Shown: piece after piece, positions 38,127 to 39,151 of the stretch
How positions within the stretch are numbered: position 1 is the first letter of the stretch
Layout of the letters: every line of letters starts with the position of its first letter
Source: a virus
Lineage: Duplodnaviria; Heunggongvirae; Uroviricota; Caudoviricetes
IMG/VR virus record: IMGVR_UViG_2740892271_000004
DNA length: 44,313 nt
Strand: one strand, 5' to 3'
The notes under the pieces: generated by a model
What the model was told of the DNA's origin: nothing
Seen by the model: only the letters and a program-made list of their open reading frames with translations
Databases searched by the model: none
Translations under genes and position numbers: made by a program

Positions 38127-38212
38127 GATCAAACTCATAAATTTTCGCTAATGACATTTCGTGTTATTTGTTGTATCAATTAAATAAATCAAATCGATCG
38201 TTTTTGTCGATC
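38127..38212 (+). promoter_or_regulatory. Candidate mom promoter control region with three GATC (Dam) sites
   Basis: GATC at 38127-38130, 38196-38199, 38209-38212 within 90 bp upstream of com; Mu Pmom is Dam/OxyR controlled through upstream GATC sites. Confidence 0.5.
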
Positions 38213-38259
38213 GATTGAGTGATAAAGATATCAACAACAAAGCAGGAGGTTATGCGGCC

Positions 38260-38460
38260 ATGTATCGAAACATACGGTGCCGACATTGTAACAAGCTACT
38301 GGCACGAGCCAGCTTCAGTTATCTGGAAGTTAAATGTCCGCGCTGTAAAACCCTCAATCAAATCACATCTCAGAGCGCCACAGAGCACCCCACATACACA
38401 AGGAAATCCTGTCGTGGGGAACAGAAAGCAAGTTACATCCCGTATCATCAGCACGCCTGA
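38260..38460 (+). CDS. com: Com zinc-finger translational activator of mom
   Basis: [34 protein letters not shown] parallels Mu Com (MKSIRCKNCNKLL...IRCPRCK); SD AGGAGG 10 nt upstream. Confidence 0.8.
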
Positions 38461-39151
38461 ACTTATTCACTATAACGACAATATCGTCGGTTATGGCTCC
38501 CGTGAGTTACGGGTTGAGACAATAAGTTGCTGGCTGGCCCGGCTGGTCGTCGTCAATAAACATTACAGCCATCGTTTCGTAAATAATTCCTACCTTCATC
38601 TGGGCATATTTTCAGAACGGGAGCTGGTTGGCGTAATGCAATGGGGTTATGCCCTTAATCCAAACAATGGTGCACGCGTCGTAACTGGCACGCAGAACCG
38701 CGAATATATGGAGCTTAACCGGTTATGGCTGCATGACTGTATGCCGAGAAACTCCGAATCAAGGGCAATCAGTTACGCGCTCAAACTAATCAGACAACTT
38801 TATCCGCAGGTGCAGTGGGTTCAGTCGTTTGCAGATGAGCGTTGTGGCTGTCTTGGTGTCGTGTACCAGGCAAGCAATTTTGATTATGTAGGCAGTCATG
38901 AAACAACATTCTATGAACTTGATGGCGAGTGGTATCACGAGATTTGCAAGAATGCAATCAAACGAGGAGGACAGCGAGGTGAACATCTGCGGGCTAATAT
39001 CGACAGAGCCAGTGTTCATAAATTCCGTCAGTTTCGTTACATCCGGTTTCTGGACAAGAGAGCCAGAAAACGCCTTAACACAAAGCTATTCAAAGTCCAG
39101 CCTTACCCAAAACCACAAACAGTTAAAACTGGTTTGAAAGAGAGTGAATGA
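38414..39151 (+). CDS. mom: Mom DNA-modification protein; start approximate (frame open from 38219, overlaps com 3' end)
   Basis: Long ORF overlapping com in another frame as in Mu, last gene before right end; GTG 38414 preceded by AAGGA chosen as plausible start. Confidence 0.65.

Follow-up and report, generated by a model that had tools for sequence, protein, structure and literature searches.

A probable, functional-looking com-mom operon in a Mu-like transposable prophage of the Sp18/O157 type

In bacteriophage Mu, the Mom protein is a GNAT-fold enzyme that transfers glycine from Gly-tRNA(Gly) to the N6 of adenine in double-stranded DNA, the product of which rearranges to N6-carbamoylmethyl-dA (PMC13219725). 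R111, S124 and R151 are essential for this activity, D149, W48, H58, Y59, Y159 and W181 are important, and an HTH-like insertion comprising residues 175-209 is required (PMC13219725). The Com protein acts on a SELEX-derived RNA target, GAGNNCC(N)2-3GAGNNCC, which is presented in a short hairpin beside a translation-inhibition structure—and the stem of that structure contains the GUG start in Mu (PMC6483171). Upstream, Mu carries GATC sites at -87, -69 and -56, with +1 placed here from the -58/+20 fragment (PMC3378877, PMC4461284). Related cassettes have been described in FluMu (Hin1523), Pnm1 (Nme1821), Hia5 and B3 (ORF48), where a com homologue directly precedes a DNA-modifying anti-restriction gene close to the right end of the phage (PMC3299994), and the occurrence of Mom and its regulators in Sp18 has already been noted (PMC3299994). 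Here, we compare these systems with a locus found in a viral DNA stretch of 44,313 nt (IMG/VR record IMGVR_UViG_2740892271_000004), which is referred to in its full length as the window.

The locus follows the gene order of Mu com-mom (AF083977, Mu_52/Mu_53), and we consider it very likely to be a com-mom operon of functional appearance, carried by a Mu-like transposable prophage of the Sp18/O157 type and including the control gates proposed below. The coding features are as follows.

38245..38249, plus strand: Shine-Dalgarno sequence of com (GGAGG), 10 nt before the ATG and conserved in the E. coli relatives L022-L024
38260..38460, plus strand: com, encoding by homology a 66-aa CCCC zinc-ribbon translational activator of mom
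38414..39151, plus strand: mom, with a GTG start, encoding by homology a 245-aa GNAT-fold DNA adenine-modifying enzyme

An initial annotation, made from the sequence alone, had proposed a Com-like zinc-finger ORF overlapping the 5' end of a long ORF in another frame, and had likened this pair to Mu com/mom. Both points held: the frames in question run from 38260 to 38460 and from 38219 to 39151, the Mu identity was borne out by Pfam, PHROG, structural and RefSeq matches, and the overlap and right-end location are those of Mu. A lack of similarity to Mom had been named as grounds for abandoning the idea; alignment with the Mu proteins instead gave 44% identity for Com and 78%, over the full length, for the 245-aa Mom. 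The com product matched Pfam Zn_ribbon_Com (PF10122; 7.5e-13, scoring 48.2 bits where the cut-off is 22.9) and, among the PHROGs, 'gpCom control of modification' (2.9e-13), and it is 100% identical to RefSeq WP_014334043.1, for which the PGAP name begins 'Com family'. Although identity to Mu Com is only 44%, the CCCC zinc ribbon is kept, with the zinc cysteines C7, C10, C26 and C29 aligning with C6, C9, C26 and C29 of the Mu protein.

The evidence for Mom is broader still, with matches to Pfam Mom (PF25680; 1.6e-77, 260.2 bits against a cut-off of 27.1) spanning profile positions 1-202 of 202, to PHROG 1384 (2.8e-83) and to the solved Mu Mom structure, PDB 8BV8 (2.4e-123); NCBIfam held no model matching Com or Mom. 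The protein is 100% identical to RefSeq WP_000528246.1, which PGAP places at exactly 38414..39151 under the name 'tRNA(Gly)-dependent adenine aminoacyltransferase Mom'. Relative to Mu Mom, it is longer by two residues close to the N terminus and by 12 at the C-terminal end. The catalytic and dimer residues tested in Mu are all kept in the window protein—Y28, W48, H58, Y59, R111, S124, D149, R151, Y159 and W181 (10/10, in the numbering of PMC13219725). These residue numbers exceed those of the GenBank Mu entry by 10, being counted from an ATG inside the Com hairpin, and with this offset the Mu sequence shows the expected residue type at all ten. The HTH-like insertion, a Mom-specific addition to the GNAT fold, aligns without gaps, 28 of its 35 positions being identical to Mu. 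The window encodes a true Mom, in contrast to the FluMu, Pnm1, Hia5 and B3 cassettes, which encode SAM-dependent adenine methyltransferases. The com and mom genes overlap by 47 nt (50 nt in Mu), and the mom stop codon lies 128 bp from the prophage end at 39279, compared with 115 bp between mom and the right end of Mu. The earlier description of the pair as sitting at the extreme right end therefore applies to the prophage and not to the window.

Upstream of com, the following elements bear on transcription.

38127..38130, unstranded: isolated GATC, 69 bp upstream of the GATC pair and the first site of the initial annotation
38175..38211, unstranded: predicted OxyR-like operator, with 15-bp half-sites ATCAATTAAATAAAT and ATCGTTTTTGTCGAT and 7 bp between them
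38192..38216, unstranded: perfect 9-bp inverted repeat, AATCGATCG-N7-CGATCGATT, holding the GATCs at 38196 and 38209, 13 bp apart
38220..38234, plus strand: candidate com-mom -10 region, either TGaTAAAGA (38220-38228) or TATCAA (38229-38234), assigned with low confidence

The three GATC sites that had been reported lie at 38127, 38196 and 38209 and span 86 bp, and the two previously described as a near-palindromic pair lie in an inverted repeat that is in fact perfect. Their placement within 90 bp upstream holds for the first codon of the long ORF but not for the com ATG, from which they lie 48 to 133 bp away. The window contains 125 GATCs, for which about three clusters of three in 86 bp would be expected and two were seen; the probability of three GATCs in just this 133-bp interval is ~0.007. 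The feature that stands out from chance is the pair spaced by 13 bp, not the three-site cluster. The pair at 38196/38209 is the only one with this spacing in the window, and it aligns with Mu GATC2/GATC3 with identical flanks (AAATCGATCG ... GATCGATT) and the identical 13-bp interval. This interval is also found ahead of com or mom in Mu, Edwardsiella, Symbiopectobacterium, Pantoea and E. coli relatives (by label L004, L005, L015, L016 and L022-L024, plus Mu). The isolated GATC at 38127 is probably incidental. Sp18-type prophages of O157/STEC strains (e.g., L022; WP_001443803.1/WP_000528257.1) share ~93% DNA identity with the window from 38151 onward, their homology beginning at 38151/38165, and since they are unrelated upstream of 38151 this GATC is absent from them; they share the short regulatory region, an identical GATC palindrome, the Com motif, the inhibitory structure and a 245-aa Mom. 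A placement of GATC 38127 in a second OxyR half-site was also considered and rejected, as a consensus match is absent there and the site is not conserved.

The predicted operator, which scores highest among two-half-site matches upstream of com, agrees with ATAGnTnnnAnCTAT-N7-ATAGnTnnnAnCTAT at 13/20 positions, and the validated Mu site reaches the same score in the same register. Scores of at least 13/20 to the OxyR consensus occur at 3 of about 43,700 positions in the window, against a background of 7e-5 per position. Both Dam sites fall in the downstream half-site; two GATCs at 13-bp spacing amount to a single OxyR half-site (ATAGnTnnnAnCTAT, its ends being ATCG/CGAT). The canonical OxyR sequence CTAT takes the place of the second GATC in Scandinavium (L007), giving 9/10 to the half-site consensus. 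Control of the GATC pair by Dam and OxyR is supported by these sequence features, and on this footing we infer a transcriptional gate in which, by homology with Mu, OxyR would bind the unmethylated operator (38175-38211) and silence it, a block that Dam methylation would relieve. The previous suggestion that Dam-controlled modification is retained stands insofar as the GATC pair is homologous to Mu GATC2/GATC3 and the OxyR score is equal; it does not extend to the third GATC or to the regulatory geometry. Where the Mu promoter has three GATCs within the OxyR-bound region, the window has equivalents of GATC2 and GATC3 only, the position of Mu GATC1 being occupied by AATT/TATC. The putative OxyR-consensus operator overlaps these two Dam sites, as in a Mu-type promoter.

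The distance between the last GATC and the com ATG is 51 bp in the window and 54 bp in Edwardsiella, as opposed to 78-83 bp in Mu, Symbiopectobacterium and Pantoea (78 bp in Mu itself), so that the OxyR-like site lies 27 bp nearer com than in Mu. The Mu segment with the C-binding box (TTAT-N6-ATAA), the poor -35 and the T6 spacer is missing from the window alignment. Because a mere 48 bp remain between the OxyR-like site and the com ATG, a downstream promoter must overlap that site, and we infer that the GATC pair occupies roughly -46 to -25 relative to a start site between the pair and the com Shine-Dalgarno sequence. The candidate -10 region is as far from the com ATG as is the Mu -10, and a TGA(T/G)A sequence is conserved, with unchanged spacing from the GATC pair, in L004 and L022; the putative -10 region of the Sp18-type prophages, TGaGAAAGG, differs from that of the window. 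No consensus sigma-70 promoter was found upstream of com on the plus strand, and the minus-strand hits there serve a divergent orphan ORF. A Mu-like C site (TTAT-N6-ATAA) considered in GATTGAGTGATAA was rejected: the spacing does not fit, and the sequence is kept in neither L004 nor L022.

As for the activator itself, Mu encodes two C/Mor-family proteins, whereas the window phage has one (10219..10641; 41% identical to Mu C and 31% to Mor). A CCCCCTT box, which precedes the lysozyme gene and an I-like gene (10658 and 18728) and is absent upstream of com, may be the recognition element of this activator—three copies only, and hence a weak case. It is possible, though unlikely, that the operator overlaps the -35 as in P22 gtr and agn43, and that the promoter, having no C box, is not C-activated in the Mu style. 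In P22/Salmonella gtr and E. coli agn43, a 13-bp GATC pair likewise forms one OxyR half-site over the core promoter, gtr GATC3 and GATC4 being located at -46 and -33 (PMC2909390). The likeness would be geometric only, the downstream genes in those systems being unrelated to those of the window. Were the operator to overlap the -35, the methylation state of two GATCs could mainly govern mom transcription, and mom might be switched ON or OFF heritably, or be leaky in lysogens, as opposed to being tied strictly to late lytic growth. A second GATC pair or a third half-site, which would permit two alternative OxyR positions, is absent here, and there is therefore no evidence for an ON/OFF phase switch.

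A different role for the GATC palindrome also has to be weighed, namely that it is the site of another dimeric protein (e.g., a C/Mor-type late activator) or part of the promoter, with no role for Dam. The perfect 9-bp inverted repeat exceeds the needs of an OxyR half-site, the palindrome occupies the position of a class II activator (roughly -45 to -20 of a start between it and the com Shine-Dalgarno sequence), the OxyR match amounts to 13/20 only, and a search for another activator box, as 10-mers with at most one mismatch common to the stretch before com and to the putative lys and I promoters, returned nothing meaningful. However, the same element lies within the experimentally defined OxyR/Dam region of Mu (PMC3378877 and references therein), in which C occupies a separate box next to it; no such palindrome is present in the putative lys and I promoters of the window phage; and the CTAT substitution in Scandinavium is predicted by OxyR binding but not by a protein that reads the GATC palindrome. 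We regard a Dam-independent palindrome as decidedly unlikely, and Dam/OxyR control as the preferred reading of the pair.

The operon resides in a Mu-like transposable prophage of 38.6 kb that spans 647..39279 of the window. Its products include transposition proteins of the MuA and MuB types, GemA, a lysozyme and a single activator of the C/Mor family. Within it, com-mom forms a right-end accessory module between the tail genes and the attachment end, as is characteristic of Mu-like phages. The end itself was delimited as follows.

39152..39279, unstranded: prophage right end (attR), with three transposase-binding repeats (GTATCAAA) at 39198, 39233 and 39255

The left end carries three inverted copies of the repeat (TTTGATAC) at 664, 759 and 811, and the outermost repeat is 17 bp from the terminus at both ends. 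Prophage copies in E. coli match the window up to 39279, and ISEc8 sequence begins at 39280. The prophage sits inside an ISEc8/IS66-family element, with IS sequence at 141..646 resuming at 39280..~39830; TnpB_IS66 lies to the left of the prophage and the C-terminal part of the IS66 transposase to the right. GACA is found at both prophage-IS junctions as a possible target-site duplication, although the fifth base differs and a clean 5-bp repeat was not confirmed. About 15 E. coli genomes contain copies with an identity of at least 99% across the right-end 2.3 kb, and because these near-identical copies adjoin different chromosomal genes, they indicate, at the sequence level, recent transposition of the element. 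A ~93% identical version (O157/Sp18 type) is present in about 218 further genome records.

Several features of the surroundings are worth recording. The place of the Mu upstream neighbours, the G segment and gin, is taken in the window by a lambdoid-type tail-fibre/DUF1378/DUF826 cassette (34871..37542: a SASA-esterase/DUF6645 tail protein, followed by the DUF1378 and DUF826 genes) and a divergent orphan gene. Lambdoid prophages typically carry this cassette, which indicates mosaic exchange of host-range modules. The orphan, an 86-aa ORF at 37710..37970 on the minus strand, has its own sigma-70-like promoter (38024..37995) and no match in Pfam, PHROGs or NCBIfam, and may be a lysogeny-expressed cargo gene. 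Its slot is variable, a different and frameshifted gene being found there in O157-type relatives. An Rfam scan of 37900-39400 returned a sub-threshold chance match only (IS102, 21 bits against a gathering score of 46). Beyond the prophage, a lambdoid tail-fibre gene remnant (39882..42120; phage_tail_N, DUF4376) separates the IS fragment from an ipaH-type type III effector gene (42300..44015, minus strand; LRR_TTSS and NEL E3 ligase, 6.7e-77), and is split by an N-base assembly gap at ~41430..41950. The ipaH-type gene, just beyond the prophage, suggests Shigella or enteroinvasive E. coli as the host.

This setting also bears on whether the module could be a silent relic, carried by a defective prophage and never expressed in its host. 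The position of the prophage inside an IS element, among phage debris and IS fragments, would fit such a state, as would the com-mom promoter, which looks very weak. On the other hand, neither ORF is disrupted, the control elements in RNA and DNA are all intact, three transposase-binding repeats are kept at each end, the transposases A and B, the activator and the lysis genes give full-length Pfam matches, and the identical copies at many different E. coli chromosomal sites imply recent transposition. We therefore consider a relic very unlikely and retain the interpretation of a functional-looking operon.

The translational start of mom merits separate attention, since the initial annotation had found the Mom ORF to be longer than Mu Mom, with an uncertain start. 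A long ORF of 310 aa does exist in the mom frame (38219..39151), but the start can be placed on sequence grounds: Mom starts at GTG 38414, giving 245 aa, and the earlier doubt is resolved. A Shine-Dalgarno sequence, AAGGA (38400-04), lies 9 nt upstream of this GTG, and Mu mom begins with the same GTG-GGN at the homologous position. In Mu, an ATG 10 codons upstream (1465..1467 of L001; the start used in the 241-aa Mom numbering) falls inside the stem of the Com hairpin, whereas the corresponding window triplet, 38375..38377, reads GCG; with the Mu ATG absent from the window, GTG is the only start common to both phages. The published observation that a Mu Mom lacking these 10 residues is fully active fits GTG as the common start. 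That the real Mom is instead an N-terminally extended product of 299 or 310 aa, initiated at ATG 38252 or GTG 38219, is almost certainly wrong, for although the frame is open from 38219 in the window and ATG 38252 directly follows the strong GGAGG, this ATG is merely 2 nt from that Shine-Dalgarno sequence, which serves com, the stretch upstream of GTG is constrained as com (zinc ribbon, Pfam match), the Pfam Mom match begins only at residue 96 of the long ORF, GTG-GGN is the start used by Mu and PGAP, and O157-type relatives with an otherwise intact 245-aa Mom carry an in-frame TAA 27 codons upstream of the mom GTG. This stop, which closes the upstream mom frame in the Sp18-type prophages and is lacking in the window, arises from a GTT-to-GTA change that is synonymous in com; because of it, we regard the 310-aa ORF as a by-product of the overlap with com.

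Two predicted RNA elements surround this start.

38373..38389, plus strand: predicted Com-binding RNA motif and short hairpin, GAGCGCC ACA GAGCACC, with stem GCGC/GCAC and loop CACAGA
38388..38419, plus strand: predicted translation-inhibition structure, in which CCCCAC (38388-93) pairs with GUGGGG (38414-19, including the mom start codon)

The sequence at 38373-38389 is an exact match to the SELEX motif, is the sole match on either strand of the 44-kb window and ends 25 nt before the mom GTG. The 4-bp stem of the Com hairpin covaries over six lineages, with 95.8% of cells paired and changes on both sides at 3/4 pairs, and slid controls collapse. The window hairpin itself contains one C.A mismatch, and its predicted stability in isolation is very low (-1.7 kcal/mol). 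The adjacent inhibitory structure folds at -12.6 kcal/mol, compared with -9.5 for its Mu equivalent, and the mom Shine-Dalgarno sequence AAGGA is partly paired within it. The CCCAC/GUGGG pairing is the same in Mu, Scandinavium, Edwardsiella and E. coli relatives (by label L004, L007, L022 and L024, plus Mu). The translational gate is thus apparent at the level of sequence and predicted structure. Taken together with the biochemistry of Mu, the proposed mechanism would run as follows: late in lytic growth, com-mom would be transcribed; Mom being toxic, its translation would be held off by locking the GUG start at 38414 and the Shine-Dalgarno sequence in the stem-loop; Com would bind the adjacent GAGNNCC...GAGNNCC hairpin and thereby open the stem; and the Mom so produced would modify adenine N6 in phage DNA, conferring resistance to many restriction enzymes.

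A sister prophage illustrates a further property of this arrangement. In L024 (E. coli DETEC-S792, NZ_CP116067.1; 1910..3116), com, the Com motif and the inhibitory stem are kept, and the first four mom codons (GTG GGG AAC AAG) are fused to a 350-aa C5-cytosine DNA methyltransferase (TIGR00675, 8e-40). Since Mom is swapped there for a cytosine methyltransferase, the Com-gated cassette is portable between anti-restriction effectors. Adenine-methyltransferase swaps have been published; we found no mention of a cytosine one.

Our analysis describes an ordinary locus—a textbook case from a familiar prophage lineage, which RefSeq already annotates correctly—and as such it matters little beyond correct annotation. 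The compacted variant of the mom promoter, with an OxyR/Dam site over the promoter and no recognisable activator box, offers a modest lead, and the com, hairpin and inhibitory-structure cassette constitutes a portable unit, which in a sister prophage drives a cytosine methyltransferase. For the prophage itself, an intact anti-restriction DNA-hypermodification module could aid its spread between Shigella and E. coli strains with different restriction systems.
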